IMG/VR virus record: IMGVR_UViG_3300037840_000123
Coordinates: 1-53,516 of that record
DNA length: 53,516 nt
Origin: a virus
Taxonomy: Duplodnaviria > Caudoviricetes
Reading direction: 5' to 3' (one strand)
Of the stretch, positions 15,202-45,051 are shown piece after piece (within the stretch, counting starts at the first letter, position 1; every line of letters starts with the position of its first letter). Made by a program: the position numbers and the translations under genes. The notes below the pieces were generated by a model, which saw only the letters and a list, made by a program, of their open reading frames with translations, was not told where the DNA came from and searched no databases.

Positions 15202-15462
15202 ATGCGACGGCTGCTGGGTGCCAGACCAAAAGCGTCCCGCTATGTTCATGCCCAGCCCAAAGATGTCACCGGCATCGAAAGGGTGGCTCTCGAATATGCA
15301 GCGGAAGCGGCTATAGACGGATTGCTAGAGATACCCATCTGTGATCTTCCAGCGGCGTATCTCATGGGAGAAGTCAAGCTGTCAACTGACGATTTATACG
15401 TTCCCGGTTCCCGGTTGCCACGGCATATTGGGAGGTGGGTGGCGGAAGAGGAAAGAGGATGA
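15202..15462 (+). CDS. hypothetical protein
   Basis: Fills the operon; start uncertain. Confidence 0.45.
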   Translation: MRRLLGARPKASRYVHAQPKDVTGIERVALEYAAEAAIDGLLEIPICDLPAAYLMGEVKLSTDDLYVPGSRLPRHIGRWVAEEERG

Positions 15463-15560
15463 CCTGCCATAACATCCTTCTTGGCGACGGCAATTCCTGG
15501 CAGTGTTTGGATGTGAGCAATTCCGCTCACTGCCACATCTCGCTCCGCTCGCCGGAGATT

Positions 15561-16061
15561 ATGATTGCATTTCTCGTCATTATCGTCCTACTATTGATTG
15601 GAGCAATTCTCTTGGACCGACACTTTCACAAAGAAGAAATCGGGCTGCTGCGGGACATCGACCGCACCGAACGGAAGATTCTTGAACAGCTTGAACCGAG
15701 ACTGAGCTTCATCAAAATCAAATTTCAAAGGGGTAAGATTATGGCAGAAGGACCGGTAACACTTTCAGTTGGGCAGAAGACAACCGCATCCATCGACGGG
15801 TTTGACCAGAACGGGGCACCCTATTTGGGTGTCATTCCACCCGTTACGTTCTCCATCGACAACTCAGCAATCGCCTCATCGACACCGAACAGCGACGGCG
15901 TGACGGACGTGGTGGCTGGGATATCGGCTGGCGTGGCTAATCTGACGGCTACACTGACCAACGCCGCTGGCACCAAACTGACCGATACCGAGACGGTGAC
16001 CGTTACCGCCGTGGTTCCGGTGCTCAGCTCCATAAAGGTGTCGTTCTCCGCGCCCGCGTAA
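15561..16061 (+). CDS. Membrane-anchored Ig-like (Big_2-like) protein
   Basis: N-terminal TM IAFLVIIVLLLIGAILL; VTLSVGQK...FSIDNSAIAS...VAGISAGVANLTAT...TVTV. Confidence 0.7.
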   Translation: MIAFLVIIVLLLIGAILLDRHFHKEEIGLLRDIDRTERKILEQLEPRLSFIKIKFQRGKIMAEGPVTLSVGQKTTASIDGFDQNGAPYLGVIPPVTFSIDNSAIASSTPNSDGVTDVVAGISAGVANLTATLTNAAGTKLTDTETVTVTAVVPVLSSIKVSFSAPA

Positions 16062-16191: not shown

Positions 16192-16620
16192 ATGAAACGA
16201 CTCGCATTGCTGTCCATCTTTCTCGCGCTGCCACTGCTGACCGGATGCGCCAAGCAGGCCGCGACCGCTCCCGTCCCCGGCTGCAACAACTCAACCGACT
16301 GCACCGCTGCACGGGCCATTGGCGACGCACAGGCGGCCATCCATTCCATCAAGACCTGGGAAGTATGCTCAGATTCCGCTTTCCCGGCCACAGTGACCTT
16401 CGATGGCCAGACAGCGTCTTGCACGGCTACCGCTGGCCCATTCCCGAAGGCATTCCGTAAGCCACTGTTCGACGCGGAAAACGCTTACAACATCGCGCAG
16501 GCGGCTGGCCTTGCCTACCACTCAGGAGTGACGACCAATCCGGCTGCGTTGTCTGCGGCTGTATCGCAGATGACAGCAGCTATTACTGCGCTGCTGAATC
16601 AGACCGGGAGCGTTAAATAG
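16192..16620 (+). CDS. lipoprotein
   Basis: MKRLALLSIFLALPLLTGC lipobox; GGAGG RBS. Confidence 0.8.
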   Translation: MKRLALLSIFLALPLLTGCAKQAATAPVPGCNNSTDCTAARAIGDAQAAIHSIKTWEVCSDSAFPATVTFDGQTASCTATAGPFPKAFRKPLFDAENAYNIAQAAGLAYHSGVTTNPAALSAAVSQMTAAITALLNQTGSVK

Positions 16621-16882: not shown

Positions 16883-17214
16883 GCTTGGCATTGCTCCTGC
16901 TAAATCTGCTCCCCGGCGTTATTGGCCAGTTCCCCGGCATCTCAACCACCATCAAGAGCATCATTGGCGACATCACAGCCTCGCTGGGCGCCATCTTCGC
17001 GTCAGGCGTGGTCTCGCAGCCTTCGGTGAACACGGCTCTGGCGGCGTGGGCTGGCGTCTTAGCGGCCCTGAAGGCGCAAGCCAACCTGCCAGCAGCTACC
17101 TTGGCAGCGATCTCTCAGCTTGAGATCGCGGTGCAGGCAGCCTTGTTGCAGGATGAGGTACTGGCGAAGTCAGTCAATTGGGGTGCCATCAACCCGATCG
17201 CGCCCGTGGCTTAA
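16879..17214 (+). CDS. hydrophobic amphipathic protein (possible lysis accessory)
   Basis: AAGGA RBS; Ala/Leu-rich; converges on the endolysin. Confidence 0.65.
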   Translation: MSLALLLLNLLPGVIGQFPGISTTIKSIIGDITASLGAIFASGVVSQPSVNTALAAWAGVLAALKAQANLPAATLAAISQLEIAVQAALLQDEVLAKSVNWGAINPIAPVA

Positions 17215-17690
17215 GAAGCGTTGACTTCGGCCCAGAAGGCTGCTTGACCTTCATTTTGATAGATTTGGCGCGCTTCGTCGTTCGGGGTGACTGGGAACCG
17301 GCCCGTAAGTTGCAGGTGAGGGTCATCTTGCAGTCTGAGCCAGTTGGCCCCAGAAACCAGCCCCAGAGAGACGCCAACAGCTTCCATGCGCTTCCACTGC
17401 GGGTGGGAGGCATTCCAGTCCACTGAGCCATCAGGATTGAGCACAGCGCAGTCACAGGCTACTCCGAAATTATGCCAGGATTCTCCACCTTTGGCGTTGG
17501 TCACGATATTCCCTGGTGCCGTTCTCCCTTGTGCGTAAAGCGCATTCTGCTCAGCCCACGTCCGCAGCCCGGCGGTCACGATGATCTCAATACTTTCCTG
17601 CTCAAGCATTTCCGCAAGCGTGGTGATCTTGTCCGCCAGCGCCGGATTGACGAAGGAGAGTTTAACCTCACTGGATGCATTCAGGCCCAT
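17211..17690 (-). CDS. Endolysin, M15-family (L-Ala-D-Glu-type) peptidase
   Basis: GLRT.AEQNALYAQGRT.PG.IVTNAKGGESWHNFGVACD; DDPHLQL. Confidence 0.92.
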   Translation of the reverse strand: MGLNASSEVKLSFVNPALADKITTLAEMLEQESIEIIVTAGLRTWAEQNALYAQGRTAPGNIVTNAKGGESWHNFGVACDCAVLNPDGSVDWNASHPQWKRMEAVGVSLGLVSGANWLRLQDDPHLQLTGRFPVTPNDEARQIYQNEGQAAFWAEVNAS

Positions 17691-18313
17691 GTAAACTCCG
17701 CATTCTGGATGAGTTCTGAGAACGTCCCACTGTTGGCGCCAAGATCGAGCTGCACCTGAAAGTTGGCGGAATCTGCCCAATTCGACTGTATGGCCTTCAG
17801 GTTCCCGAGACTTGAGGGTATCGGGAATATCAAACCATCAATCTCGACCGAAACAATCGAGTAGGTTTTCGCCCCAGTGTCGAACTTATAGACGTAGACA
17901 AAGGTATGCCACACGCCTGGAGTGAGCTTTCCCGGCTTGAACCCGGTGTCAATCCAGTTGCCCTGCGCGTTCGATATTTGTAGCATGCCGCCCTCGGCAT
18001 AGTTGAGTTGCGAGGAGAAGTTATAGATGTAGGTGGCAATCGAGACCTTGGTATCGAACTCCAACGCCTGTGCGGCGGTCAGGGAATCCGCATCCACCAT
18101 CACCTGAAACGACAGCGACAGGTTCCCGGTATTTGGACAGATGGGCCGGGAGATCGCCGCCAGCCAGTCGGCATATTTCGGCCCTTCGGTGTAGAGCAGC
18201 ATGAGGCCGCCAAGCTGGAAGAATCCGTAGTTGGTGGGCGAGACCCCGCCGATGTTTGCCCCGACTTCTTTCTTCCAGTCGGGGAGAGATTGAAGCTGGG
18301 AATCGGTAATCAT
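17681..18313 (-). CDS. beta-rich protein, possible ConA-like/lectin fold
   Basis: 210 aa; aromatic beta-strand pattern; GGAG RBS. Confidence 0.6.
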   Translation of the reverse strand: MITDSQLQSLPDWKKEVGANIGGVSPTNYGFFQLGGLMLLYTEGPKYADWLAAISRPICPNTGNLSLSFQVMVDADSLTAAQALEFDTKVSIATYIYNFSSQLNYAEGGMLQISNAQGNWIDTGFKPGKLTPGVWHTFVYVYKFDTGAKTYSIVSVEIDGLIFPIPSSLGNLKAIQSNWADSANFQVQLDLGANSGTFSELIQNAEFTWA

Positions 18314-19499: not shown

Positions 19500-19670
19500 T
19501 TAGCGCGGTACTATTCCGATTAGATGCCCGCCCGCACCCAAGGTCAGCAGGAAAGCCAAAAGTCCCGTCCAAAACATGATCTTGCCAATCTCAGCTAGTT
19601 TCGGATTGGCGCAGAGGGCGAACATCAGTAGACCGATGAGCGCGACGAGCAGCGAGAAATATATTTCCAT
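19500..19670 (-). CDS. 56-aa two-TM protein
   Basis: MEIYFSLLVALIGLLMFALCANPKLAEIGKIMFWTGLLAFLL...; AAGGAG RBS; absent from the ORF track. Confidence 0.7.
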   Translation of the reverse strand: MEIYFSLLVALIGLLMFALCANPKLAEIGKIMFWTGLLAFLLTLGAGGHLIGIVPR

Positions 19671-19672
19671 GG

Positions 19673-20119
19673 TTAGGCTCCTTCTTGTTTTCTTGTTTCC
19701 GGTGGTGGTGGATTTGCGATCATTGACTTTGGTAAAGGTGCTGGCATCTGCGGCAGCCAGTCCTTGAGATATGGTACTTTACTCAGCGCGAAATCCAATA
19801 GGTTATCGACGCCTAGCCCAAAGAACAGCGCGAACACGGCGTAGTGGGGAATTGCCGAGTGAAATTGCGTATTCCAGTGGAAGAATGTAAGCACGGTGCT
19901 CAAAAGCTCCGGGTAGAAGGTAAGCCAATAAACCCCGCCGCCCGCGATGGCCCGCACCAGAAGCGGAGGCCAGCAACGCTGAAAGAACTGCCCATAAGTG
20001 TTGGCAATCGGATTCGGCCCGTTGACGAGGTAGTAGGCCCGTTTGAGGATGTAGGTCAGTTCGCCGATGACGAACCAAAGCCACAGCCACGAAAGACTCC
20101 ATAGCGGATTCGTTGTCAT
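19673..20119 (-). CDS. multi-TM membrane protein (holin candidate)
   Basis: Three or more hydrophobic segments. Confidence 0.7.
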   Translation of the reverse strand: MTTNPLWSLSWLWLWFVIGELTYILKRAYYLVNGPNPIANTYGQFFQRCWPPLLVRAIAGGGVYWLTFYPELLSTVLTFFHWNTQFHSAIPHYAVFALFFGLGVDNLLDFALSKVPYLKDWLPQMPAPLPKSMIANPPPPETRKQEGA

Positions 20120-20126
20120 GGTTCCC

Positions 20127-20558
20127 TCAGTTCACATTCGGCACTGCTGTTACCGGCCCCGGCGTTTGCGGTGGTGCTGGTATCTGAGCACAACCCTCGG
20201 CTGAGAGTGTGCTCTTGAGACCTCCGCTGCCGACGGCTGCCGCTTGGTAATAGAGCGCGGTTGCCCCAGCCGGAATATTGTTGTCCTGAAAGGCCACTGT
20301 TCCGCCGCTTGAAATCAGTCCGGTCACGTAGGGCGTTGTACCCTCGGTACCGGAAGTCGTGCCGCGGTAAAGGTTGTAGCTAACTACTGTCGGCGGCTGA
20401 GTGGATGCCGCAAACGAGACCTGGACGCAAACTGCCCCTACTGGTTGACCGGGGCAACCTTGGGTGCCAATGGTCGAGCTACAGCTTGTTGCGGCCCACG
20501 CGTTCACTCCAGAAGCGCATAGCCAGCTCAAGCCGATCAGCCACGCCAGTTTTCTCAT
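20127..20558 (-). CDS. signal-peptide-bearing FN3-like protein
   Basis: MRKLAWLIGLSWLCASGVNAWA; YNLYRGTTSGTE...YYQAAAV...S. Confidence 0.7.
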   Translation of the reverse strand: MRKLAWLIGLSWLCASGVNAWAATSCSSTIGTQGCPGQPVGAVCVQVSFAASTQPPTVVSYNLYRGTTSGTEGTTPYVTGLISSGGTVAFQDNNIPAGATALYYQAAAVGSGGLKSTLSAEGCAQIPAPPQTPGPVTAVPNVN

Positions 20559-20679
20559 AAATCCTCCGCAAGACATTCTTGACCGCGCTCTCCGTGATGC
20601 CCAGCCGGAAGGCAATCCACTGGTTCTTCCAGCCGATAGCTACGAGCTTAATCACTTCCCGTTGCCGTGAATTCATCAT
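20479..20679 (-). CDS. stand-alone LuxR/GerE-type HTH protein
   Basis: SRQREVIKLVAIGWKNQWIAFRLGITESAVKNVLRRIYEKTGVADRLELA. Confidence 0.85.
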   Translation of the reverse strand: MMNSRQREVIKLVAIGWKNQWIAFRLGITESAVKNVLRRIYEKTGVADRLELAMRFWSERVGRNKL

Positions 20680-22652
20680 GGCAATAATGGATCGAGTCCT
20701 GAAAAATTAACCAACATGCTATCGAAATATACAAACCCGCCGCCAGGGACATCGGCCCCGGAGAACACACCGTAGAATATCGAAGTCCAGTTGACGGTTT
20801 GCGCCGTTCCCGTTAGTGTAGTCCCAAGCTGCGCCACGATGTAACCGCCGCTCGAATAAGCCGGTCCGGGGCAAGTCTGCGCGTACGACACATTGTTTCC
20901 GCTTACCGTGATACTGGAGAAAGTTCCGTTCCATGCTGCCGGACTAGCGTCTTCAAGAACAATCGTTTTCCCGGTAATCACATTTCCATCGGCGGGCAAT
21001 CCGGCGGTGGTCAGTGTCGTAGTTCCAGCCGTGCAGGAGGCTCCGGTTATCGGTGTCGCCGTGTAAAGCTTGATGGTGTGGTTCGTCGAGGCGTTGTTCG
21101 AGAAATAAATGTCAATCCAGTACCACTCGTTTGTGATGATGGCCCAACTGGATGTTGTGTCCGTTCCGCCTTGAGTCGTGATCTCGATGTTGCAGGCGCT
21201 TTTGACATTCGCGTCAACATAGTTGTTTCCGTTGACGCCCTTCAGGGAAATGAAGTTGCCGCCGCTGGTCGAGCAATTCGCGTCCCAGTTGAACCACATG
21301 CCAAAACTGATTGGCCCGAACGTCGAATAGCTGGACTGAAAAGAATCTCCCGGAGTAAACGCCCAGCGTTCCTGCGAAGCCCCGTCCCCCGTGAATACGG
21401 TTCCTAGAGTGCCCGCCCCGGCCGCCGTATTTGACCCATCCCCCAGTCGTCCGGGTGGACTGATTGGAGGTTTGTTGGCGGCTGTTCCCGCAGTCATCTT
21501 GCCATTTTGCGGACCTTGGTCTGCCCAATTCCCTCCCGAGAATCCGAGAGTAGAAGCAGCCAAGCACGCTGCTGTGAGGGATGAACCGTTGGTGCAACTG
21601 TCGAAGCCGATGTACATGCCCTCCGTAAAGGGCGAGGGATTGTAGCTGAATGTCATGCCGCGCGTGAAGGCCGTGGCGCTGGTGATTGTCCATGCGCAGG
21701 GAGTCGTGGTTTGCGCTCCAGCAAAACCCTCCTGAGTGCCCGCCGAGTAATTTTGGTTTGCCGCTGAATATGGCGCATTCACGGCACTGATTGCGATGTT
21801 TCCCGTGTCCCCGATAACCGCGCAGGTCTGTATTGGGCTTGTTCCGCTGGATGTCTGGGCCGGGCCTGTGATGGTGGTCGAGGCCGTGGGAATCCATTGC
21901 GCGGTGTCGTTGTCCAACCCAACCTGAGATGGACTTACACCCGGATGCCATTCAGTGATAAAGACGTGTCCTGTAGCCGTTTGCGGGACGGCCGTAGGAG
22001 TAAATGTTGCGCCGCTGGTTCCACCCGTCCAGATGTGAGAGTTATCCGGGCTGCCAGTAACCTTGTAGATCACCATCGACGAACCATTGTTACCGATGTT
22101 CACAGGAACCGGATAGTAGACAATTCCGGTCGCGCCGCTTGTCGCTTGGGTGACTGTCTCTCCGACTGTGAATGTTCCACTCGTCACCGAGCCCGCCGTG
22201 GGAGCGATGAAATAGAACGTCAGCGGCGACGTGCCGCCGTTTGTATAGGACGGAAGAACATAAGTGCATCGCGGAATCCACGTAACACTATTGAGGCCGT
22301 TGCTGCATCCAACACCGGCAAGCTGTACATTGCTTCCAGCGGATGTGCCCAGAGTATAAGTCTGCGCACCGGCAACAAAGACGGGGGAGAATGTTCCGTC
22401 GCCCAACTGGCCACTATCCGAATAAATGACGTAGAGGTTCCCAGCCGTCAGGTTGCCCGTGCTCATCGTCACTGAGGCTTGATAGACGCCCGAAGGCGAG
22501 GCATAGCCGCTTTGGACGAAGGTAATAGGGGGCGTCCCCGGAGCTACAAGCATCCCCTTGGAGATGACCATTCCCTTGGAGACCTCTATTCCCTGCCCGA
22601 AGGCGAGAGAGCATAACAGCGGAATCCAGAGACCTTTTAGTAAATGACGCAT
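20676..22652 (-). CDS. signal-peptide-bearing fibre/adhesin-like protein
   Basis: MRHLLKGLWIPLLCSLAFG-Q; Gly/Ser/Thr-rich beta domains; ConA-like segment near the C-terminus. Confidence 0.75.
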   Translation of the reverse strand: MRHLLKGLWIPLLCSLAFGQGIEVSKGMVISKGMLVAPGTPPITFVQSGYASPSGVYQASVTMSTGNLTAGNLYVIYSDSGQLGDGTFSPVFVAGAQTYTLGTSAGSNVQLAGVGCSNGLNSVTWIPRCTYVLPSYTNGGTSPLTFYFIAPTAGSVTSGTFTVGETVTQATSGATGIVYYPVPVNIGNNGSSMVIYKVTGSPDNSHIWTGGTSGATFTPTAVPQTATGHVFITEWHPGVSPSQVGLDNDTAQWIPTASTTITGPAQTSSGTSPIQTCAVIGDTGNIAISAVNAPYSAANQNYSAGTQEGFAGAQTTTPCAWTITSATAFTRGMTFSYNPSPFTEGMYIGFDSCTNGSSLTAACLAASTLGFSGGNWADQGPQNGKMTAGTAANKPPISPPGRLGDGSNTAAGAGTLGTVFTGDGASQERWAFTPGDSFQSSYSTFGPISFGMWFNWDANCSTSGGNFISLKGVNGNNYVDANVKSACNIEITTQGGTDTTSSWAIITNEWYWIDIYFSNNASTNHTIKLYTATPITGASCTAGTTTLTTAGLPADGNVITGKTIVLEDASPAAWNGTFSSITVSGNNVSYAQTCPGPAYSSGGYIVAQLGTTLTGTAQTVNWTSIFYGVFSGADVPGGGFVYFDSMLVNFSGLDPLLP

Positions 22653-25600
22653 GTTGTACCTGGGTTCACCGATCCAGAAGGAGTTGTGCCTGTCAATGTT
22701 CCAGTGAGTAGAAACGTCCCCGATGTGCCGCTGTTCGACTGGATCACACCCGAAGAAGACCATGGCTCATTGGTAACGTTGCTGACACTCGCCCCTGTCA
22801 GGATTGTCTGATTGGAGGTTGAAGTTGTGGAAGTCACGCTCCCGGCGGTCGAAGTGCCCGTCAGGGTCGAATAGATGATTGCATTCCCATTCACTCCCAC
22901 GGGAGCCTGCGCTGCCGTGTAGCCCAGAGCAAAAGTGTCGCTTGAAGTCGATGTCGTATAGGTGCCGGAACATTGCCATGCCCAAGTCGTCGCCGTGGCC
23001 GGAAGTGTCCACGAGCAGATGGTGTAATGGGTTCCGGTCACCGTCATATTCACAACGGCTGTCAGTTTGCAGCCATCCAGGGTAAGCTGGGTCAGCGTGT
23101 TCATGCTCAGGTAGGGGGTCGTGCCTGGAGTTGTGATTGTTGGCCCCGTGCCGCTTAATGCTAGCCCCGCTCCAGTGACCGTGCCGCCCGCATTAACGTT
23201 GCCTCCGCCGATGCCGACCGAAGTCGCCGCCGTGCCCAGCGTTGTTGCAACCACTAATCCGCCGGTAATCGAGGAAGCCGCGCTGGTCGCATCGACGATG
23301 CCTAATGTGTGGCCTCGGGTAAATATCGCATTGCTGCCCGCAACCGGAGGCGTGAGATACATATTGAAAGCGTCGGTGAAAGTCTGACTCGCTGACGCTG
23401 AAGCATAAGTAGGGCCAGGAAAGAAAATCTCGCGCTGGAGAGCAATGGTTCCAGTCGTCGCCCAAGTACGGGTTCCGGTGACGCCTAAAATGCCGGGAGA
23501 TTCTGTTCCGGCTGTCTGGCCTGTATCCGTAGGAATCGTGATCTGCCAATATGGCAGCACGCCGGATGTTCGCGCAGCCGGAGTGTGGATAGTTTCTGCG
23601 GTGAAGGTGTTGATTGCCGCCCATGTTTGAGCAGCCGACAATGCACCCACGCAACCCTTGTTGGCGGTATTGAACCACGCAATCGGACAGTGAGCGGTAG
23701 AGTCCATAACGAAGCCGCTGCCGCTTGCGATGCTGGCCGGTTCCGTTCCTTCAACGCCGAATAATTCCGCTCCGGTGCCGGGAGTAGTGACCACTGGGGC
23801 CGTGCCAAAATACGCGTTACCGAGAGGGTCGACGGTGAAAACTCCCGTATTGTTGGCACGAAAATCAATGATTCTGGAGGTTGTTGCCGATGCCGTATTA
23901 GTGACATTGAACAGCAAGCCTTCCCCTGTCAAGGAGGCGTTATTCCAAAGCGCCTCGAACTGGGCCACAGGCGTAGCGACTGTATTCGTAACGCTCCCCT
24001 GAGCGACTTCTAAAGGCGTAGCTGTCGAGTTAGTCGCTGTGCTCAACGCTACAACCGCTTGATTCGCCAGCCCATTGGTCAGAGTTCCGTTTATGGCTGC
24101 CGAGGTCTCGCCCACGTCAAAGATGTCTTGCGCGTCGGTAGTTAATGCACCATTCCAAGTTTCATTGAAATTACCATTGGCGATAGTGGTATTTGCGGTC
24201 GCCGCTGTCACCGCCGAAAGCCCAAGAGAGCTGCCGCCGAAAGCGCATTTGCCGTTATAGCAATCTATGGCAACATTGGTGAGCGCGTCTGCGGGATTCG
24301 CGTCTGTAAACGAAACCTTCCCTGCAATATCAAAATCGTAATTAGCAAATCCCAGATTATTCGCGGGCGTGAGCGTATTTGAATTCTGCTGGTCGATGAA
24401 TGTGTCCGTGATCTGATTCACGCCTTGAACTACGGCACGAATGTTTGAAGCTTCGACAGTGGCCGCGGTTCCGACTTCAACCAGCGCCGTGCAGGCTCCC
24501 GTAACATGGTTTGCGCACGAGCCGTCAATCCTGTCTACATTGACCCCTGCTATAGTCGCGGGAACTGCCAGCGGACATTTAATATCGCAGACGGTGTTGG
24601 CATAGCCCAGCGCGAGGCCGATACCCTTGTTCTCGAAATGCAGGTCTTTGAGCGTGCTCAGATTAGAGTCAAACAAGAAGGCGATATTTTGGGGAGTCGC
24701 GGAGGTTGTACAACCGTGTCCATTGGCGAACGAGACATCGTGAACTTCGCGCACCGCTGTATTGATGTCCACAAAATCAATCGTGGTCGCCACGCATCCG
24801 GAGGTTCCGCCGTCGTACGGCCCGAAGAATAGATGCTCATAAGGGCCGGAATCCTGAGCCTGGCCACCTTCGACATCGAGACCGATGTCGGTATAACCCT
24901 GAAATATTACGTTCGCGTACTTCGACTGTTCCGCCGAGAACCAGTTCATGCCCGCATCGCATCCCGCGATCTGGTTGCAGCCCAGCGTCATATTCTGAAT
25001 GACGATTCCGTAAGTAGCGGAGGGCGTGCCACTCTGCGAGTCGATTCCTAACCCGGTCAGCGGAGCCTTGATAATCCAGTTTGCGGTCGCAGCGATTGCG
25101 CTTTGGTAGCCGGGATTCTCGGTGATGATGGCATGAGTAGAATCCGTGATTTTCCCAAGAATCCCGTAGATAACATTTGCGCCCGACCAGACCATCACTT
25201 CATCGCCAAGATTCGCCGCAGAAAACGTCAGCCCGGAGCCGCCAACCGTGAGAGTCACCGTCTGCGAGTAAGAACCGATAGGGGTCACTGCCGAGGCAGC
25301 AATCGTCGCACTGCCGAGAACTGTACACGCATTGCCGCCGGTGCCCGCTGTAGCTCCGGACTCGCAGGCAAGGAATGTTCCAGCATTCGCCAGCAAAGTG
25401 CTTCCGGCCACCGGCGTGGCTCCGGGCTTCTGTCCCATCGGCCCGCAGCCTTGCATTCCCACATTGCTGTGATTGGCGACGTTGCCGGGAACGGGAATGC
25501 CGTTGGTGAGAATAATCGGGACATTGGTCAGTGTCACCCCACACGGCATGAGGATGGTAAAACTCGCGGGAGCAGAAGCGGCGAAATAGGGGTTCACCGC

Positions 25601-26350
25601 AAGCAGCGGTTGACCACCACTTTCACTTGCTCTTGTGCCCAATTCTCCTCGCGCATCAATGACGACTCCGGTGGAATTGGAAGTGGCAGCGGCGGCCAGG
25701 GCAGCCTGAATCGCGGTGCCGGTATCGCTTCCCGTAAATGATGTGCTTTGCAGGGTCGGGCAACTTGTGGCGTAGGTGGTAGAGCCGCTTGAATTAACAA
25801 GTGGACATCCCTGGGTGCCGGAGGGTGTTCCATTCGTTGCGGTGATTGTTCCGCTGCCTGAAGTAGACAAGGAGCCGCCCGAGCCGATGACTAGCGCGTT
25901 TGTGTTGGTGCCAGACGTAATGGCGCTGAATGCGGATGATCCCGACGACGATCCCAGCTTCGAGGTCTGCTGGTTTCCGTTCAGCGAGATGCTGGCGGAA
26001 CCGCTGGTCACAGTCGCCCCGCATATCTGAAAACTGTTTCCGGCTGCAACCGTGATCCAGTAGGTGCCATTGGCGGTGATCGTAGACTGCGAAGTGGATG
26101 ACCCATAAGGAGTCACGGAGACATTAGAGGCGCTGTTACCGATAGTGAGAACAGCTTGGAGCGTCCCCGACCAGACGGTAGAGCCAACGCCGATGCCTAT
26201 TGTGCCGGATTTCGAGAGGTCAAGCGATGGCGTACAACTGGATCCGCCGCCAGTGGATGGAATCGAGTAAGGGCCGGCGGAAGTGACGTTCTGGGAGAGC
26301 GCCGATGCCGTCAGCAGGATGAGAGATGCGATCAGTATGCGTATGCTCAA
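22637..26350 (-). CDS. signal-peptide-bearing tailspike/fibre-like protein (about 1237 aa)
   Basis: AGGAGG RBS + TTG; (M)SIRILIASLILLTASALS-Q; DTGTAIQAALAAA followed by beta-helix-like repeats. Confidence 0.75.
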   Translation of the reverse strand: MSIRILIASLILLTASALSQNVTSAGPYSIPSTGGGSSCTPSLDLSKSGTIGIGVGSTVWSGTLQAVLTIGNSASNVSVTPYGSSTSQSTITANGTYWITVAAGNSFQICGATVTSGSASISLNGNQQTSKLGSSSGSSAFSAITSGTNTNALVIGSGGSLSTSGSGTITATNGTPSGTQGCPLVNSSGSTTYATSCPTLQSTSFTGSDTGTAIQAALAAAATSNSTGVVIDARGELGTRASESGGQPLLAVNPYFAASAPASFTILMPCGVTLTNVPIILTNGIPVPGNVANHSNVGMQGCGPMGQKPGATPVAGSTLLANAGTFLACESGATAGTGGNACTVLGSATIAASAVTPIGSYSQTVTLTVGGSGLTFSAANLGDEVMVWSGANVIYGILGKITDSTHAIITENPGYQSAIAATANWIIKAPLTGLGIDSQSGTPSATYGIVIQNMTLGCNQIAGCDAGMNWFSAEQSKYANVIFQGYTDIGLDVEGGQAQDSGPYEHLFFGPYDGGTSGCVATTIDFVDINTAVREVHDVSFANGHGCTTSATPQNIAFLFDSNLSTLKDLHFENKGIGLALGYANTVCDIKCPLAVPATIAGVNVDRIDGSCANHVTGACTALVEVGTAATVEASNIRAVVQGVNQITDTFIDQQNSNTLTPANNLGFANYDFDIAGKVSFTDANPADALTNVAIDCYNGKCAFGGSSLGLSAVTAATANTTIANGNFNETWNGALTTDAQDIFDVGETSAAINGTLTNGLANQAVVALSTATNSTATPLEVAQGSVTNTVATPVAQFEALWNNASLTGEGLLFNVTNTASATTSRIIDFRANNTGVFTVDPLGNAYFGTAPVVTTPGTGAELFGVEGTEPASIASGSGFVMDSTAHCPIAWFNTANKGCVGALSAAQTWAAINTFTAETIHTPAARTSGVLPYWQITIPTDTGQTAGTESPGILGVTGTRTWATTGTIALQREIFFPGPTYASASASQTFTDAFNMYLTPPVAGSNAIFTRGHTLGIVDATSAASSITGGLVVATTLGTAATSVGIGGGNVNAGGTVTGAGLALSGTGPTITTPGTTPYLSMNTLTQLTLDGCKLTAVVNMTVTGTHYTICSWTLPATATTWAWQCSGTYTTSTSSDTFALGYTAAQAPVGVNGNAIIYSTLTGTSTAGSVTSTTSTSNQTILTGASVSNVTNEPWSSSGVIQSNSGTSGTFLLTGTLTGTTPSGSVNPGTTCVIY

Positions 26351-26364
26351 TTTGCCTCCTTTTC

Positions 26365-28185
26365 CTAGCGTGTTACCGTACAGCGTACTACCATGGCCGC
26401 GGGAGTGATGTTCCCGGCGGTCGGATTCGAGAGCCACACCGTCACCGTGTTCGACGTGACCACGGGCGGCAGCATCTGAATCCCGGTTTGCCATGTAGCT
26501 CCAGGCGCGGCATTGAGAGAGCACTGTGCTACGTCGGTTGCGAGTGCCCCAGTGATGGTGATGGGCGTCTGCGACTGGGAGTTGCCGCTCGCGATCAGGG
26601 TTCCGGCTGTAGTCGTGGTCCCCGAACCAATCCTCACGGCAATGATGTTCGGTCCAACTCCGGCACTCTGTGAGATCGTTGGAGAATTGATTAGTCCGAG
26701 GTTCCCTCCAGCTACGTCACCCAAGCTGAATAGGCCGCAGCCCCCCACGCCGGTCGCGCTAAAGGTGCTGTTATTGAGTGGCATCATGTTGCCGCTTGAC
26801 CAGAACGAGGCACACGCTCCGGCCGTCACCAGGTTGTTAGGATTGGCCCACGTGCCGACCATCGTGATGCCCTCAACTCTCACCTTGGCAGTAGAGAGTT
26901 CGAGGTCGATCGGGGCAGTCACCGGCGTCAGGGTTGAAGAAAAACGGCCTCCAATAAGGTTTACGCCATTGGCTGCGACCGCCGTGTTTGGAACTGTCAG
27001 ACATGTACCTGACGCACCATTTACCTCGCAGTAGAGTCCGAGGAAATTGGCGTTATCGACAAAGTTGGCAACAATGGCAACCTCATTGAGGTTGTCGGCT
27101 TCCGCTGAACAGCCCACGCAGTTGAAATTATCTACCGGGTTGGACGCACTTCCCAGCCACCACTCATGCGCCGATGAATTCAGGCTGCGACAGTCCACTC
27201 CGGTAAATTTGGCCTGAATGTTTAACAGGTCGTATCCGATTGGGCCGGCTGCCCGAACAAATGTGCTGTTACAACTGGCGTCCACCACCGCGCCGGTATT
27301 GCCCCAGCGGAAGGCGGCGACGGTTGCCGCTACCGTCGGCATATCGATCATCACATGATCCAGCATGGTTCCGCCCACGCCGTTGTCGATGTCTACAAAC
27401 ACGGGAGGGGAGGTTCCGGTTGCATTCAGGCAAAAGTTCCGGAGGGTGGTACCTTGTCCGGCCGCTCCGGTAATCAAAAATGGAGCCGATGCGCCTCCCG
27501 TCCAGGTAAGAGTAGTGGTGCAGTGGACTCCCGCGTTCTGATAAGCGGCCCCAGCCCCCTGAATGGTCAATGGAAAGGATGGAGTGATCTGGGTGGGAAT
27601 AGTAAAGTTTCCCGGCGGAACCATCAACATACATCCAGGAGCCAGGTTGCAGGCAGCAAATGCCGCGCTGATAGACGGGAACTGGTCCGCCCAGATGACG
27701 CGCTCACCGGAGAATCCGTTCAGCGGGGATTTCGACTGCTGGTAGCCCAAGTTTCCACCGGGGGTAGACGCTCCGGAAGGCGGCGGCAGGAATGCGGATT
27801 GCGACTGGATTTGTGTGGAGATATCTTGTGACGAAGTCAGCGAGAGCGGAGTCATGGTGAAACAGGTCAGCGTGCTCAGTGATGGCGAAGAGCAGAAGGA
27901 AAATTGCCATTGCGGGTTGGCCGAGGATGGCTGGATCAAGGAGGTATTGGTCAGCGAGATCGAGAAATGACCGAAGGAATCAAGGGCAGAGATGACCACG
28001 ACAGGATTGACCGGGTTGGTATTATTGACTGTCCACGACTGGCCGGAGGGAGCAAGAACGGCGCGGCCGCTTCCCCCGGCGTAAAGGACGCCGCTTGGGT
28101 CCTGAACGGTTCCTGTGACGGTGATCTGCTGGCTCCACGAGAGAGGAGTGAGCAGCCACAGGAGGATTGTCAGTCGTCGTATCAT
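26365..28185 (-). CDS. signal-peptide-bearing beta-helix tailspike-like protein
   Basis: MIRRLTILLWLLTPLSWS-QQ; ITVTGTVQDPSG N-domain; ISAAFAAC...VPPGNF (pectate-lyase-like entry motif). Confidence 0.75.
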   Translation of the reverse strand: MIRRLTILLWLLTPLSWSQQITVTGTVQDPSGVLYAGGSGRAVLAPSGQSWTVNNTNPVNPVVVISALDSFGHFSISLTNTSLIQPSSANPQWQFSFCSSPSLSTLTCFTMTPLSLTSSQDISTQIQSQSAFLPPPSGASTPGGNLGYQQSKSPLNGFSGERVIWADQFPSISAAFAACNLAPGCMLMVPPGNFTIPTQITPSFPLTIQGAGAAYQNAGVHCTTTLTWTGGASAPFLITGAAGQGTTLRNFCLNATGTSPPVFVDIDNGVGGTMLDHVMIDMPTVAATVAAFRWGNTGAVVDASCNSTFVRAAGPIGYDLLNIQAKFTGVDCRSLNSSAHEWWLGSASNPVDNFNCVGCSAEADNLNEVAIVANFVDNANFLGLYCEVNGASGTCLTVPNTAVAANGVNLIGGRFSSTLTPVTAPIDLELSTAKVRVEGITMVGTWANPNNLVTAGACASFWSSGNMMPLNNSTFSATGVGGCGLFSLGDVAGGNLGLINSPTISQSAGVGPNIIAVRIGSGTTTTAGTLIASGNSQSQTPITITGALATDVAQCSLNAAPGATWQTGIQMLPPVVTSNTVTVWLSNPTAGNITPAAMVVRCTVTR

Positions 28186-28355
28186 GCCCGCTTCCTTTTG
28201 CCGCGATGGTATCCACCACGCTTGGTGAGTCGGCCTTCGTCGGCCATTCCTTCGGCTTCACCAACTACGGCCTCCCCAGGAACGCCTTCTCGACGAAGTT
28301 TAGAAATCTTGATCCTTATGGGGGACTTGCGGTCGCGTTTCTTCTTCCTGCTCAT
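28182..28355 (-). CDS. 57-aa basic protein
   Basis: MSRKKKRDRKSPIRIKISKLRREG...GYHRGKRKRA; ATGA-coupled on both sides. Confidence 0.65.
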   Translation of the reverse strand: MSRKKKRDRKSPIRIKISKLRREGVPGEAVVGEAEGMADEGRLTKRGGYHRGKRKRA

Positions 28356-29860
28356 CTCTGGTCTCCTTGACCTGCACCTACAGTCTGCGTGAGTTGGCCG
28401 GCGAATGGCAACGGGCGAGGAGGAGGATTGACCCCTCTTCGCAGCATCCGCTCGGGTCTGCGTAATCCTTCAACTGCAATATCCCCGGCGGCCCGGCCCG
28501 CGAAAACGTCCGCCAAGCCATGCAGGAATTGTCCCGAGAACAGCGATCCCAGCATCGAGCCGACGTTCTCGGATGCCCGTCGCGATACCCAGTCCATGTC
28601 GCCGGAGGTACGGTCGAGCTGATCCATCCTCCGTTCAGCCTGTTGCTGGATTTCCTTGAATGCTCCGTAGCGTTGCTTCAGGTCGGAGTAGCCGGATAAC
28701 TTCCACTCGATCTGATCCTGTAGAGATTCCTTGACGGCGGTCATTACCGATACCGGATCACCAGAGCGGATCGCTTGATATTGTGCATCTGGTGGGAGTT
28801 TGCGAAACTTGTTGAGTTCGGCGTTGATGTCCTGCACCACTTGTTCCGCCTGCGACAGATTCATCGGATTGCGGATGAGGCTCTGCTCGATATTGGTCGC
28901 TTCGTCCTGAATCATCTTGGCCTCAGGGGGAAGTACATCTGTAGGGGTGGTACGAATTTTCATCCACGGAGTGATGCGTTTGCGTACCATATCGCCTACC
29001 TGTATCGCGTCGATCTTCCCGGCGGTAGGCGAACGGCGATAGAGGCGGCCAGCGAGGTCAGCGGCAGCCCCACGGCGGCCTTTCTCGGCGAAGTCGCGCA
29101 GCTCGGGGAAATCCTTGACCTTGGATTGCTGAAGGTCGCCTCGGAGATATTGGTAAGCGCGGCGGAGCGCAGGAACATCTTTGGTAGTGGGACGAAGCGA
29201 TCCGACGAATGCGCGCTCCTCGCGTGCAAACAGTCCCGGCATGACACGGGAAATGGCCCCTTCGGTGGCGCGGAGAGTCTGAGCCGCAGAAGGAGCGCCG
29301 CCCAGGATTTGTGCGCCGCCGCTCAACGCCTTCTGCGCTCCTTCAGGGGTCGTAATTCCTTCCTTCACTCCTTCATAGATATCGCCTACGCCATGTGCAC
29401 CATAGGCGGCCCCTTGTGCGGTGAGCAGAGCGCGGGCGGCTTTACCGACGGCTCCGGGCAGCTTGGCCATCTTGGCCAGTCCTGCCGTGGCGATTGACGC
29501 TGGGGAAGTCAACGACGAAGCCGTCTTCGAGAGATCGGACATGAATCCGGTGTTGAATACCCGGCTGGCTGCGTCTCCCGGTGACTCATTTAGCTTCGGT
29601 GGGCGGTCGCGTTCGGAATCCAGCGACTGCATGGACTCGGTGCCTCCTGTCGCCCACTTTACGATGCCCTCAGGAGTCACCAGCCCCTTATTGACGTAAT
29701 CCCAGCCCTTCTGGAACAGGGAGCGGTCTACATTGCCGGTCTCATCCACCGGGAAGTATCCCTGCGACATGGCCCGGCCAAGCTGGTCTTCAGGCAGCAT
29801 GAACTGCTGGCCACCCTTGGTGACCTTGACCTTCTTCGGCGATGTGGGTAGCTCACTCAT
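28352..29860 (-). CDS. putative internal virion/DNA ejection protein
   Basis: 502 aa; helical, Ala/Gly-rich; podovirus-typical position. Confidence 0.6.
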   Translation of the reverse strand: MSELPTSPKKVKVTKGGQQFMLPEDQLGRAMSQGYFPVDETGNVDRSLFQKGWDYVNKGLVTPEGIVKWATGGTESMQSLDSERDRPPKLNESPGDAASRVFNTGFMSDLSKTASSLTSPASIATAGLAKMAKLPGAVGKAARALLTAQGAAYGAHGVGDIYEGVKEGITTPEGAQKALSGGAQILGGAPSAAQTLRATEGAISRVMPGLFAREERAFVGSLRPTTKDVPALRRAYQYLRGDLQQSKVKDFPELRDFAEKGRRGAAADLAGRLYRRSPTAGKIDAIQVGDMVRKRITPWMKIRTTPTDVLPPEAKMIQDEATNIEQSLIRNPMNLSQAEQVVQDINAELNKFRKLPPDAQYQAIRSGDPVSVMTAVKESLQDQIEWKLSGYSDLKQRYGAFKEIQQQAERRMDQLDRTSGDMDWVSRRASENVGSMLGSLFSGQFLHGLADVFAGRAAGDIAVEGLRRPERMLRRGVNPPPRPLPFAGQLTQTVGAGQGDQR

Positions 29861-30950
29861 TCGGTGGCGGAGCCTCCGGCGTCACGGGTTCGAGATCGAG
29901 TGGTGCTTCGGTCACGTCAGGAGGAGCCAGCAACTGCTGCATCACATCCGGCCCCAGCATCCGCTCGTTCACCTTCTGGAATCCCCGTAGATTACGTTTA
30001 GTATAGGCCAGCACTCCTAATGTCACGCTGGGATTCGCCAAGGGATTGCCGCGTTGGGCCTGAAGCCGGGCAAACGCTTCCGGTCCACGGAATCCCTGCG
30101 CGCCGAGTGGGCCACGCAGGAGATTGACGTGTTCGGTCAGGGCGGCGAAGGCGGTAGCCACGGCAGACTCCTGCGGGGTGAGGGAGACGCCACGAGAAAC
30201 GAGGGATTGTACCTTCCCCTGCGGGTCAATGGTCAGGTCGATCTTCGACGCCTTGAGAAGATCGGTGAGCACGCTGGCATTCTTCTCGATAGTGTCGATG
30301 GCTCCGATGGCGGAATTGACCGCGACTGCGTTGGTGCCAGCGGAACGAAGAGTGGCGGATAGTTTCTCACGCTCGGCGAAACCACGCTGCTGCTGCTCTT
30401 GGGAGAATTTCTGCGACTTGCGTTGACGCTCATCGGCTGCCGCGCGAGCATCCTTAGCGCGTTGATTAGCGTCCTCCCGGTATTTCTTCGACCGGGCCTC
30501 AATTCCTGCCTCCGAATCGGCTTTGTCTATTTCAGTCTTAACCGCGCCAAATCCTTCTTTATAATTCCCCTGCGATGCGTACATCCCCCAGATATCCTGC
30601 GCCGCCTGCTTGCGCTTAGGGTCGGCAATAGAGTCGATGGCTTTATGGGCAGCGGCAGCAAATCCCTCATCCTCCGGCCTCATTGCGAAGTCCTTGACTG
30701 CCATCGAGCCGTCAGGATTCTGGGTGAGCGCATAAATCTTGTTGCCGATGGTCGTGAATCCCTTGTAAGCAGGACGGGTTGCAGCAGACTTGGCGGTATC
30801 CAGTTGCTGCCGGGTAACGTCCATGCCAAGCTGTTTCTGGAGTTGGTCGAGCTTCTGGCCCTGCGTGGCGAGGTTGATCTCCTTCCCCTCCTGGATATCG
30901 TTCCCAGTGCGCCCGGCTTCTTGCAGAATACTTGTCAAAAGTGCGCCCAC
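29853..30950 (-). CDS. putative internal virion/DNA ejection protein
   Basis: GGAG + GTG start; coiled-coil-rich. Confidence 0.6.
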   Translation of the reverse strand: MGALLTSILQEAGRTGNDIQEGKEINLATQGQKLDQLQKQLGMDVTRQQLDTAKSAATRPAYKGFTTIGNKIYALTQNPDGSMAVKDFAMRPEDEGFAAAAHKAIDSIADPKRKQAAQDIWGMYASQGNYKEGFGAVKTEIDKADSEAGIEARSKKYREDANQRAKDARAAADERQRKSQKFSQEQQQRGFAEREKLSATLRSAGTNAVAVNSAIGAIDTIEKNASVLTDLLKASKIDLTIDPQGKVQSLVSRGVSLTPQESAVATAFAALTEHVNLLRGPLGAQGFRGPEAFARLQAQRGNPLANPSVTLGVLAYTKRNLRGFQKVNERMLGPDVMQQLLAPPDVTEAPLDLEPVTPEAPPPNE

Positions 30951-31528
30951 TAGATGCTCCCTCCTAAGCTGCTGGTATCGCCGCTGTTCAACCCGCCACT
31001 GGGATCGTAGCTGGCCGGGAACGGCCACGTCAGGCCAGCGGTCGAGCTGGGAGCGATCGGGACTCCGGTTGGCGTGGGGGCGGTAGCCGCCGGATTCGGC
31101 TTGAACGAGTTAAGGAACAGACTCATCGCCGGGCCAAGATTGGTTGGCGGGCGGAAGGTTCCCGCCGGAAGGCCAAGCGACTGGAGAACCGCCTGCATGG
31201 CTGTGTTCTGGTTCTGCTGGTAGAACGGGGCGAGGGCTTGAGACTCGGAGGCGGCGAAAATTCCCGGCGCCTGCGAGAGTCCACGGGAGGCGAGGTTACC
31301 TTGGACTTGATTGCCAACCGCTTGCGTGAGGCCGTTGTTCAGCGGTTGCTGAATCTTGGCCGCCATCTGCGCAAGAAGCTGGGGATTTTTCAGCAGGTTC
31401 ATCACGAAATTTTGGTATTGGCCAGCCTTGTTACCTTCGAGGATATTGCCGACCTCGCCCGCGCCGACAAGTCCGCCGGAGAATAGCTTCTGCCAGTTCT
31501 GTGTGAAGAAATCGCCTAGTCCGTCCAT
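30950..31528 (-). CDS. putative ejection protein
   Basis: Gln/Gly/Ala-rich; LASRGL motif; position. Confidence 0.55.
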   Translation of the reverse strand: MDGLGDFFTQNWQKLFSGGLVGAGEVGNILEGNKAGQYQNFVMNLLKNPQLLAQMAAKIQQPLNNGLTQAVGNQVQGNLASRGLSQAPGIFAASESQALAPFYQQNQNTAMQAVLQSLGLPAGTFRPPTNLGPAMSLFLNSFKPNPAATAPTPTGVPIAPSSTAGLTWPFPASYDPSGGLNSGDTSSLGGSI

Positions 31529-31531
31529 AAG

Positions 31532-32032
31532 TTATGCTCCCGCCAACAAACCTTTGAAATCTCCGCCTGACAGTAACTGACTGAATATATCGCTTCCTCC
31601 ACCGCCACCGGGAGAGGGTGATACCGGATTTGGCTGAGGCCGGGACAGCGCGCTCAGGATGTCACCGCCTCCCTGAGAGGAAGAGGCCGGAGTCAGCCCT
31701 GAATTCCCTCCAGCGTTGAGGCCAAATAAATTGTTAATGGCCGCCTGAATATTTCCCGTTGCCTGCGGATCGTTGCCGAGGCCGGACTGAGACGCTCCCC
31801 ATTGGGCCGCGTATTCGGGAGACACGGAACCTCCGGTTTGGGCCTGCAAGGTGGGGAGCGCGGAGGATACCGCAGCCGTCTGAGCCGCGTTTTGCGGCTG
31901 GGTCAGCGGAGCCGGTGTAGTGGTTGGCTTCGGCGGAGTTCCCGATGGCTGGTTGGCCAAGTCGAGTCCAATAGTGGTCCCGGTGGTAGCCGCCGCTGCA
32001 ATCAATGGAATGAAGGGGATGACGAACGGCAT
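31532..32032 (-). CDS. putative ejection/pilot protein
   Basis: Hydrophobic N-terminus MPFVIPFIPLIAAAA; Gly/Ser-rich. Confidence 0.55.
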   Translation of the reverse strand: MPFVIPFIPLIAAAATTGTTIGLDLANQPSGTPPKPTTTPAPLTQPQNAAQTAAVSSALPTLQAQTGGSVSPEYAAQWGASQSGLGNDPQATGNIQAAINNLFGLNAGGNSGLTPASSSQGGGDILSALSRPQPNPVSPSPGGGGGSDIFSQLLSGGDFKGLLAGA

Positions 32033-32481
32033 TAAGGCATCCCCCTTAGCGGCATGGGAGCTGCCAGTAAAGTCAGGCCGTTCTTGACAGCTTGTCCTCC
32101 CAGTTTGGTGACAATACGAGCCAAGGAGGATTCCTCCTCGCGAGTTTCGTCAACAATGACCATGTAACCCTTGAAGCCGCGCTTATGGAGGGTAGATTTG
32201 AATACCCGCAACATCCGCAATAAATTAGTGGATGGCAGGCCGGGAATGATCTGTAACCGCCAGATTATCGCCATTCCATGACACGGAGACGCCATCAGTA
32301 TTCCAGTAAGCTCACCCGCGAATTCCGTTACCCATATCCACTCCGGATCAAGCTGACCGAGAATATCGAACCCAATATTAAGTGTCGATGGTATCTGCTC
32401 GCCGGGATAAAGATGACGGACACGGGTCGCAGGAGTCAGCCACTGGAGCACGTTGTCATGGATGATCGGCTGCGTCGTCAT
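32032..32481 (-). CDS. GNAT-like virion assembly protein
   Basis: WVTEFAGELTGILMA...; lies between nozzle and ejection genes as in P22/T7-like phages. Confidence 0.5.
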   Translation of the reverse strand: MTTQPIIHDNVLQWLTPATRVRHLYPGEQIPSTLNIGFDILGQLDPEWIWVTEFAGELTGILMASPCHGMAIIWRLQIIPGLPSTNLLRMLRVFKSTLHKRGFKGYMVIVDETREEESSLARIVTKLGGQAVKNGLTLLAAPMPLRGMP

Positions 32482-35243: not shown

Positions 35244-35301
35244 CGCAGCCCCCGATCGCGAGACGCAGTGGTAGAGGCCGTACGGGATTTCTTCCATCGC
35301 T

Positions 35302-44085: not shown

Positions 44086-44387
44086 TGAATCGGCTCCGTT
44101 TCTTCCAGGGGAACATGCGCACTGAGCCATTCCGCGATCTGATCCCCCGGCATCTCGCCGCCGGCAGTGTCGGCCTTGCGGAATTGCTCGATGTCGATCA
44201 GCATTCCAACCATGTCCTTGGCGGTAATGAGGCCGGAGGATACGAGGACGGAGGCGTTTCGGGATACTTTGTCTTCAAGGTCGGTCCACGCCTTGTTACG
44301 GCCCTCGCGGCGCAGGTCGGCGAACTCGCGGAAGACTTCTTCGAGGACTTGGGCGGCGTTGCGGACAAGGTGGGCATCCGGTCTCAG
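44082..44387 (-). CDS. hypothetical protein
   Basis: 3' part of ORF 44082-44618 not overlapping the upstream gene; start uncertain. Confidence 0.5.
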   Translation of the reverse strand: MRPDAHLVRNAAQVLEEVFREFADLRREGRNKAWTDLEDKVSRNASVLVSSGLITAKDMVGMLIDIEQFRKADTAGGEMPGDQIAEWLSAHVPLEETEPIQ

Positions 44388-44833: not shown

Positions 44834-45051
44834 CAGTCATCTCCGGTTCTAACGCCGAACAATTCGTTCATGGTAACGTGAGCCGCCTGGTCAAGCATCC
44901 ACTTGAGTTCACGGTAAGTACAGTTGGTCTTTACTGTGATCGCATCCTCGGATTCCAGCAGGATGACGACCCGTTGCGCTTTTTCTACTGCCGCAAGCGC
45001 CTGCATCAGGACTTCCTGCGGAGGCTTATCGCTGGTATCTATGCCGCCCAT
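44833..45051 (-). CDS. small hypothetical protein
   Basis: AGGAG RBS; coupled to the terminase stop. Confidence 0.55.
   Translation of the reverse strand: MGGIDTSDKPPQEVLMQALAAVEKAQRVVILLESEDAITVKTNCTYRELKWMLDQAAHVTMNELFGVRTGDD

Follow-up and report, generated by a model that had tools for sequence, protein, structure and literature searches.

Sec-type leaders across the fibre-like late genes of an uncultured clade of tailed phages: a candidate set of exported receptor-binding proteins

The fibres and spikes of tailed phages normally lack a signal peptide and both fold and attach in the cytoplasm; in the textbook view these viruses assemble wholly in that compartment, and a reducing milieu is assumed for the folding of their receptor-binding proteins. 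In T7 and P22, fibres or tailspikes are the last components to be added to the particle, and their addition is also possible in vitro. Exported phage products are known as well: Lom of lambda, Llp of T5 and Cor of phi80 and T1 are small single outer-membrane proteins or lipoproteins that serve exclusion or conversion, and the filamentous-phage virion proteins pIII and pVIII have Sec leaders, with pIII carrying periplasmic disulfides, in inoviruses that assemble at the membrane and are extruded without lysis. The present work concerns a 53,516-bp stretch of DNA (hereafter the window; IMG/VR record IMGVR_UViG_3300037840_000123, Caudoviricetes, analysed over its full length), which amounts to the complete genome of a short-tailed phage and carries direct terminal repeats, and within it a module of four late genes, A to D, whose fibre-like products all carry Sec-type leaders. 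The minus-strand late genes run in the order terminase, portal, capsid, adaptor, large tail protein, five internal-protein candidates, A-D and holin candidates, so placed that gene A stands where T7 has its fibre gene gp17. The A-D module takes up 14.8% of the genome and is laid out as follows.

26365-28185, minus strand: gene A, 606 amino acids (aa), ATG start
27781-28131, minus strand: N-terminal module of A, a candidate docking domain (from the family profile and a model of its own)
22637-26350, minus strand: gene B, 1237 aa, TTG start
20676-22652, minus strand: gene C, 658 aa, ATG start
20479-20679, minus strand: GerE/LuxR-type helix-turn-helix regulator gene, 66 aa, between C and D (PF00196, E=8.9e-10)
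20127-20558, minus strand: gene D, 143 aa, ATG start

This arrangement recalls that of podovirus tailspikes and fibres (T7 gp17, P22 gp9, the CBA120 TSPs and the Acinetobacter and Klebsiella depolymerases), since A-D follow the internal-protein genes, a conserved N-terminal module is joined to exchangeable C-terminal bodies and, in A only, the body is a right-handed beta-helix; unlike those proteins, the module products of the window all have a Sec-type leader together with an even and enriched content of Cys. Like Lom, Llp and Cor, A-D are exported-type proteins encoded in or near the tail-fibre region, but here a whole module of leader-bearing, fibre-like proteins of 143-1237 aa is involved, and none has a lipobox. 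The distance to inoviruses is evident from the portal, the HK97-type head, the holin candidates and the leaderless endolysin of a tailed phage. A further likeness links A to the exported proteins WceF of Pantoea and RbmB of Vibrio, in which an export signal is likewise followed by a parallel beta-helix. These two are chromosomal and belong to exopolysaccharide (EPS) or biofilm clusters, whereas A-D belong to the late genes of a phage that looks lytic, and the N-module of A is phage-restricted. WceF has a 28-aa twin-arginine (Tat) signal on a tailspike-like trimer (PMC7949094); the leaders of the A family, by contrast, are short and Sec-type (median 19 aa) and do not conserve an RR pair.

The initial annotation had set the starts of the four genes at 28185, 26350, 22652 and 20558 and had read leaders with n-, h- and c-regions ending in SWS before Q, ALS before Q, AFG before Q and AWA before A. 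Starts and leaders are both borne out, with the following details.

A, aa 1-18 (28132-28185, minus strand): MIRRLTILLWLLTPLSWS, then QQ; predicted cleavage before Q19; AAGGAA upstream of the ATG
B, aa 1-19: M/L-SIRILIASLILLTASALS, ending in TASALS, then QN; AAGGAGG 5 nt upstream of the TTG
C, aa 1-19: MRHLLKGLWIPLLCSLAFG, ending in SLAFG, then QG; the start overlaps the end of B by 16 nt
D, aa 1-22: MRKLAWLIGLSWLCASGVNAWA, ending in VNAWA, then AT; GGAGGA 4 nt upstream of the ATG

All four have the layout of Sec-type leaders for signal peptidase I, namely a positive n-region, then about 8-16 uncharged, hydrophobic residues as the h-region, and small residues at both -1 and -3, the whole spanning about 15-30 aa. 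The calls were made with a heuristic n-h-c rule of our own in place of SignalP, and this rule fires on about 4-6% of control open reading frames (ORFs). Good Shine-Dalgarno sequences precede A, B and D, and the ribosome-binding site of C is weak. The first 40 codons of A and B contain no in-frame ATG, GTG or TTG, which makes a leaderless form from a later start impossible for these two genes; C has in-frame ATGs at codons 28 and 34. The stretch that encodes the D leader (20493-20558) falls within the last 80 nt of the GerE gene in another frame, and no start codon exists in the D frame between the GerE stop and the conserved body, so that no start other than the upstream ATG, preceded by GGAGGA, is credible. 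The true starts are thus not downstream of the hydrophobic segments, a finding that the initial annotation had listed among those that would refute its reading. The 3' end of the GerE gene thereby also encodes the whole D leader, a shared stretch over which the GerE protein and D each appear to be constrained. Other classes of signal were considered and rejected. A Tat signal is excluded by the lack of a conserved twin-arginine, as RR is present in only 3 of 21 aligned presequences (those of A in the window, L012 and P0045), the other 18 having KK, KR, RK or a single K/R; a lipoprotein (signal peptidase II) signal, by the lack of Cys at +1 in A-D, a lipobox (LAAGC) appearing only in the distant homologue P0003; and pilin-type signals, on sequence.

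The leaders are a conserved trait. When a profile of the first 150 residues of A was run against a library of 1.84 billion proteins, 978 representatives were recovered at E<=1e-3, nearly always with the match at the N-terminus of proteins of about 80-2355 aa. Leaders were surveyed in the best 149 of these 978. In 140 of the 149, the position aligned to Gln19 is preceded by 12 or more residues; the nine without a presequence start inside the domain and look truncated. A crude leader test (hydrophobic core plus K/R) is passed by 131 of the 140 presequences. Position -1 is occupied by A (93) or G (33) in 126 of the 140, position -3 by A in 86 and position +1 by Q in 122; atypical c-regions also occur, one member having P and nine having Q at -1. 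Presequence length has a median of 19 aa in the 140 representatives and a range of 16-23 aa in the 21-row alignment, in which mean identity is 23% over the leader columns versus 38% over the domain columns. In the A N-module family the leader is therefore kept as a property and not as a sequence. The same holds beyond A: the four full-length homologues of C (P0019-22) all have leaders, three of them passing the strict rule, and P0030, P0033 and P0034, which share the N-terminal ~110 aa of B, all carry leaders too.

A comparable picture is obtained within the clade to which the window belongs. With a profile of the large tail protein, here called the nozzle candidate, 21 viral loci were recovered; they are 42-61% identical to it and represent about 12 distinct phages, with full-length contigs of 54-56 kb. 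In the late operons of 12 phages, fibre-module ORFs (at least 150 aa, beyond the internal-protein genes, with a fixed 4.6-kb boundary) were positive by the strict n-h-c rule in 29 of 33 cases versus 8 of 131 for the other late ORFs (Fisher p=9e-21). Three of those eight are misbinned fibre-module genes (A of the window and one each in L015 and L020), and one of the four negative module ORFs, an open-ended one of 784 aa in L003, looks leader-bearing by eye. Homologues lacking the leaders had also been listed by the initial annotation as refuting evidence; those of A, B and C retain them, as do the 12 phages.

The second line of evidence comes from cysteines. The early impression of many Cys in these proteins holds: mature A, B, C and D have 16, 24, 10 and 4, all even counts, amounting to 1.6-3.3% of residues, versus 0.9-1.2% in the portal, capsid, adaptor and nozzle candidate; among the five internal-protein candidates the four largest have none and the 149-aa one has a single Cys. 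In the clade, even counts were found in 22 of 24 complete leader-bearing proteins of at least 200 aa from the 12 phages (binomial p=1.8e-5; the 24 include one protein free of Cys that is probably a false positive), and Cys content is 2.04% in the leader-bearing proteins versus 0.63% in the leaderless late proteins, where those with any Cys have an even count in 23 of 54 cases, as expected by chance. Independent database homologues (at least 300 aa, strict leader, at least one Cys) have even counts in 106 of 122 cases (p=9e-18), and so do all four full-length homologues of C. Complete pairing of Cys is a product of oxidative folding outside the cytoplasm and, taken with the leaders, is most naturally explained by export. 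The frequency of N-x-S/T sequons (z=+1.8 in leader proteins, -2.4 in controls) is too weak to serve as a sign of periplasmic glycosylation. Export and oxidative folding of A-D are therefore very probable from their sequences, given leaders conserved in homologues, even numbers of mature Cys and starts that do not lie downstream. The initial annotation had offered two options, exported appendages attached at or after lysis or secreted surface proteins; the part common to both, Sec export with oxidative folding, is strongly supported, and of the two the appendage is the likelier.

The architecture of A bears on this comparison. It comprises the leader (1-18), a transthyretin-like N-domain (19 to ~135), a linker, a beta-helix (~160-516) and a C-terminal beta region. 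In the AlphaFold2 model, with a mean predicted local distance difference test (pLDDT) of 61, the leader helix is followed by a beta-sandwich (20-125) and, after a disordered linker, by a right-handed parallel beta-helix at pLDDT 55-87; the models of A place the leader helix by itself, not packed against the domain. The beta-helix resembles the tailspikes CBA120 TSP2, Fri1 gp49, HK620 and LKA1 (Z 17-20; 18-19 for the first three) and is equally near to secreted enzymes and adhesins, RbmB (Z 19.9, the top match), PfbA (19.8) and AlgE4 (19.5). Modelled alone (pLDDT 87), the N-domain is a sandwich like those of transthyretin and carboxypeptidase regulatory domains (Z 8-9); it matches viral models in BFVD that include annotated tail fibre proteins (E 1e-4 to 1e-2), and solved phage neck, collar and tip pieces match it weakly. 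As this fold is common, it is consistent with a docking role and not diagnostic of it. Foldseek searches of the PDB with both A models gave no match at E<=1e-3, and prediction of a complex between the adaptor (416 aa, 12 alignment rows) and the mature A N-domain (aa 19-140, 21 rows) gave 0.00 in both runs, a score that speaks neither for nor against docking. The N-module is present once per genome in 11 of the 12 clade phages, 10 by profile and L028 by BLAST only, with none in L020, and the C-termini attached to it are unrelated between phages.

Resemblance in the remaining bodies is slighter. The initial annotation had described beta-helix, lectin and FN3 bodies; the beta-helix stands for A, and lectin and FN3 are leads or a motif only. 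In the ESM Atlas, B scored 0.84 to 'putative Fiber' and pectate-lyase clusters, a lead to a fibre- or pectate-lyase/beta-helix-like protein, and the Atlas structure rows for C (template-modelling score 0.65-0.73 by target) include unnamed and LamG-like clusters, a lead to a LamG-like C-terminal half. Protein C (21950-22150) and the nozzle candidate (~33650-33815), both on the minus strand, share a motif of about 55 aa (GET.TQ.TSGATG ... TG.P ... WTGGTSGATF.PT); the nozzle-candidate copy matches phrog_20658 'head decoration' (E=6.5e-10), further phage structural proteins have the motif as well, and it recurs in tandem in the otherwise unrelated P0023-P0027, one of which has a Phage_stabilise domain. 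D has a 17-residue FN3-type motif, YNLYRGTTSGTE, in common with the nozzle candidate, and its PDB sequence search returned no significant match. Against Pfam and PHROGs, A-D gave nothing above threshold. As a separate observation, an invariant G-x-DPLLP-COOH closes C (window 20676-20693, minus strand) and each of its four full-length homologues; it could be a recognition or sorting motif and matched no known signal.

Regarding distribution, 50,697 GenBank phage records contain no sequence match for the A N-module, the A body or C (B and D were outside this search), and for the nozzle candidate the sole matches, to Arthrobacter and Gordonia major tail proteins, were confined to its FN3 segment; the clade has no cultured relative among these records and is uncultured. 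A scan of viral contigs with the A sequence alone gave no match, alignment queries did retrieve loci, and the scan with C yielded one truncated locus, L032, in a different genomic context. One homologue is found on a 3-kb contig of a Candidatus Sulfotelmatobacter metagenome-assembled genome (MAG). In 401 genomes sampled from the class of that MAG, the A N-module is present in 2; in 401 genomes of the phylum, Acidobacteriota, no prophage of the clade was detected, the nozzle-candidate profile giving only FN3-level matches in 2. From these 401-genome scans the A N-module is therefore phage-specific. The host is probably a diderm member of the Acidobacteriota, and presequences of 16-23 aa fit a diderm host. 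A distant copy of leader plus N-module, 345 aa long, was also noted at ~80-84 kb of a 150-kb bacterial contig (G266:C24; L008, L009), next to ParB-like and HNH-like genes and a small protein without a leader; it may mark another, integrated element in which this module is employed.

Taking these data together, A-D may constitute a tailspike or fibre receptor-binding set that matures in the periplasm and docks to the tail at lysis, a reading that we prefer to the alternatives and consider evenly poised. A-D would be made as precursors with Sec leaders cleavable by signal peptidase I. Late in infection, the unfolded proteins would be translocated into the periplasm of the diderm host, the leader would be cut off before the conserved Gln, and folding there would place every Cys in a disulfide. 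Capsid, portal, adaptor, nozzle candidate and internal proteins would meanwhile form fibre-less particles in the cytoplasm. Opening of the inner membrane by the holin would release the leaderless M15 endolysin and merge the compartments, and assembly would end with the attachment of the fibres to the tail through their conserved N-terminal modules. Export, cleavage, disulfides, host, virion association and timing of attachment are all steps that we infer. The receptor-binding role is favoured by synteny, by a conserved N-module with swapped C-termini, by the phage-restricted distribution of that module and by the fact that most clade members have no other fibre candidate; docking of exported fibres is physically plausible given that T7 and P22 fibres are added last and can be added in vitro. 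Extended to the clade, a split of virion assembly in which heads and tails are built in the cytoplasm and all receptor-binding proteins are Sec-exported and docked at lysis is put forward more tentatively.

Several points weigh against a role in the virion. We know of no tailed phage that attaches exported fibres, and the compartment-crossing step is unprecedented in vivo. Host binding could be a function of the large nozzle candidate itself, which has extra domains. The two folds recognised in A, beta-helix and transthyretin-like, are generic, and secreted bacterial enzymes typically have them too. Even Cys counts could in principle stem from oxidation after release, the leader rule is heuristic with a control rate of about 4%, and the host assignment is weak, as it comes from one 3-kb MAG contig and one distant chromosomal match. 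P0002, a homologue of the A body with 41% identity, has no leader. Leaderless genes also exist in the fibre modules of two relatives (741 aa in L002; 509, 305 and 107 aa in L013), and their products could be the true virion fibres there. The statement of the initial annotation that no signal-free fibre gene remains consequently holds for the module of the window and fails for those of L002 and L013, which makes the argument built on it weaker than claimed.

The strongest alternative, which we judge unlikely but worth serious consideration, is that A-D are exported and stay outside the virion as periplasmic or released glycan depolymerases and adhesins. Host polysaccharide or receptor would be stripped or masked in the latent period and at lysis, with a block to superinfection, progeny kept off debris or a loosened EPS matrix as the benefit, and host recognition by the virion would be left to the nozzle candidate or to leaderless proteins. 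The evidence for export and oxidative folding serves this explanation and the receptor-binding one identically, and the beta-helix of A matches secreted bacterial enzymes as well as tailspikes. Among homologues of the A body, P0003 has a lipobox and P0004 a Sec leader of a different kind, leaderless genes share the module in L002 and L013, and a GerE regulator lies within the module. WceF is a precedent for a bacterial tailspike-like trimer with a Tat signal (PMC7949094). This explanation nonetheless spends three to five large genes, 14.8% of the genome in the window, on accessory roles and leaves most clade members fibre-less. An N-module found once per genome with swapped C-termini is the usual signature of fibres docked on virions, and it is almost absent from the sampled bacterial genomes. 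In addition, a benefit in lysogeny is improbable for a phage that looks lytic, and a Sec leader alone gets a protein only as far as the periplasm of a diderm cell.

It is improbable that the hydrophobic N-termini are uncleaved tethers or an assembly or oligomerisation element of proteins that join the tail in the cytoplasm. This would retain the standard assembly route, cleavage of the leaders is only predicted, and c-regions with P (in one) or Q (in nine) at -1 are atypical. Against it, A or G at -1 in 126 of 140 presequences and the conserved Gln at +1 suit signal peptidase I, and we know of nothing else that requires a -3/-1 pattern together with a conserved +1 Gln. Positive n-regions would put the body outside the membrane, the even Cys counts (p=9e-18) and the enrichment in Cys point to an oxidising compartment, and the leader helix is modelled apart from the domain. 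Finally, an artefact of wrong starts or chance hydrophobic stretches, for which the weak ribosome-binding site of C with its ATGs at codons 28 and 34 and the position of the D leader inside the GerE gene in another frame might speak, is scarcely credible in view of the leaders retained by the homologues of A, B and C and across 12 phages, of the lack of an alternative start in A and B, and of a D frame without a start after the GerE stop.

The observation itself is real, clade-wide and statistically strong, and the assembly route is a testable hypothesis. In the literature searched, from which subscription journals and supplementary files were excluded, no report of Sec leaders on tailed-phage receptor-binding proteins was found. 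Attachment at lysis, if confirmed, would be categorically new and would define a new assembly route in Caudoviricetes. The gain would be disulfide-stabilised fibres fit for harsh soil or peat, and holin triggering would become an assembly checkpoint besides being a release step. Annotation tools that exclude proteins with signal peptides from structural lists would be misled, and engineered fibres would probably require periplasmic or oxidising expression. Should A-D act outside the virion instead, a lytic phage that devotes ~15% of its genome to exported glycanase-like proteins would represent a new form of envelope remodelling. The receptor-binding claim is directly testable because the predicted mature N-termini are exact, for instance Gln19 of A.

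The surroundings of the module in the window are given below.

45051-47864, minus strand: terminase large subunit with a LAGLIDADG intein (PF14528, E=7.7e-17; PF14890, E=5.4e-9)
42337-44130, minus strand: portal (weak SU10- and P22-type matches)
38139-39137, minus strand: major head protein (phrog_9953)
35302-36552, minus strand: adaptor-like protein, 416 aa, without leader (PF24175 SU10_adaptor, E=2e-4, under the curated cut-off)
32478-35297, minus strand: nozzle candidate, 922-939 aa, with an FN3-like segment and without leader, following the SU10-adaptor-like gene
28352-32481, minus strand: five leaderless genes, 149, 166, 192, 391 and 502 aa, almost Cys-free, placed by position
19500-20119, minus strand: two small multi-transmembrane proteins (148 aa and 56 aa), from their translations, directly after D
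17681-18313: leaderless 210-aa protein, beyond the lysis genes
17211-17780, minus strand: M15/VanY endolysin without leader (PF02557, PF13539; phrog_15351 endolysin, E=1.6e-30)

The adaptor-like protein is conserved throughout the clade. The large tail protein at 32478-35297 is a nozzle candidate named from its position only, and in L023, L027, L028 and L030 its gene appears as two adjacent ORFs (for example 347 + 715 aa), either a genuine split or an assembly frameshift. The order of the five leaderless genes at 28352-32481 is kept in relatives, and their position suggests internal or ejection-type proteins of podoviruses. The two multi-transmembrane proteins are putative holins, for which a family search gave no match; the endolysin has no leader, so that lysis would depend on a holin. 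No integrase family was found among the scanned ORFs, and the phage appears lytic. The 210-aa protein had no significant match in a PDB sequence search. Between 16.5 and 29 kb, a scan for promoters and terminators gave nothing above shuffled sequence, and the 166-nt gap upstream of A folds no better than its shuffles (z=-0.95).

Some minor observations can be added. The 741-aa protein of L002 (7783-10008) and the 305-aa protein of L013 (19727-20644) share a leaderless N-terminus that contains LASDNFASGSLAAGW; the former has a weak GH32-like match (E=1.4e-3), and the two have 11 and 3 Cys respectively, odd numbers unlike those of their leader-bearing neighbours. At the end of the plus-strand arm of the window lies a gene for a predicted lipoprotein of 142 aa (16192-16620, plus strand; LLTGC followed by AKQ), without family match, and adjoining it one for a 208-aa protein (15435-16061, plus strand), also without family match, in which one transmembrane segment is followed by a Thr/Val-rich region of Ig-like appearance. 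The sole tRNA gene, a tRNA-Asp (GTC), is located near the left end of the genome (1873-1951, plus strand).

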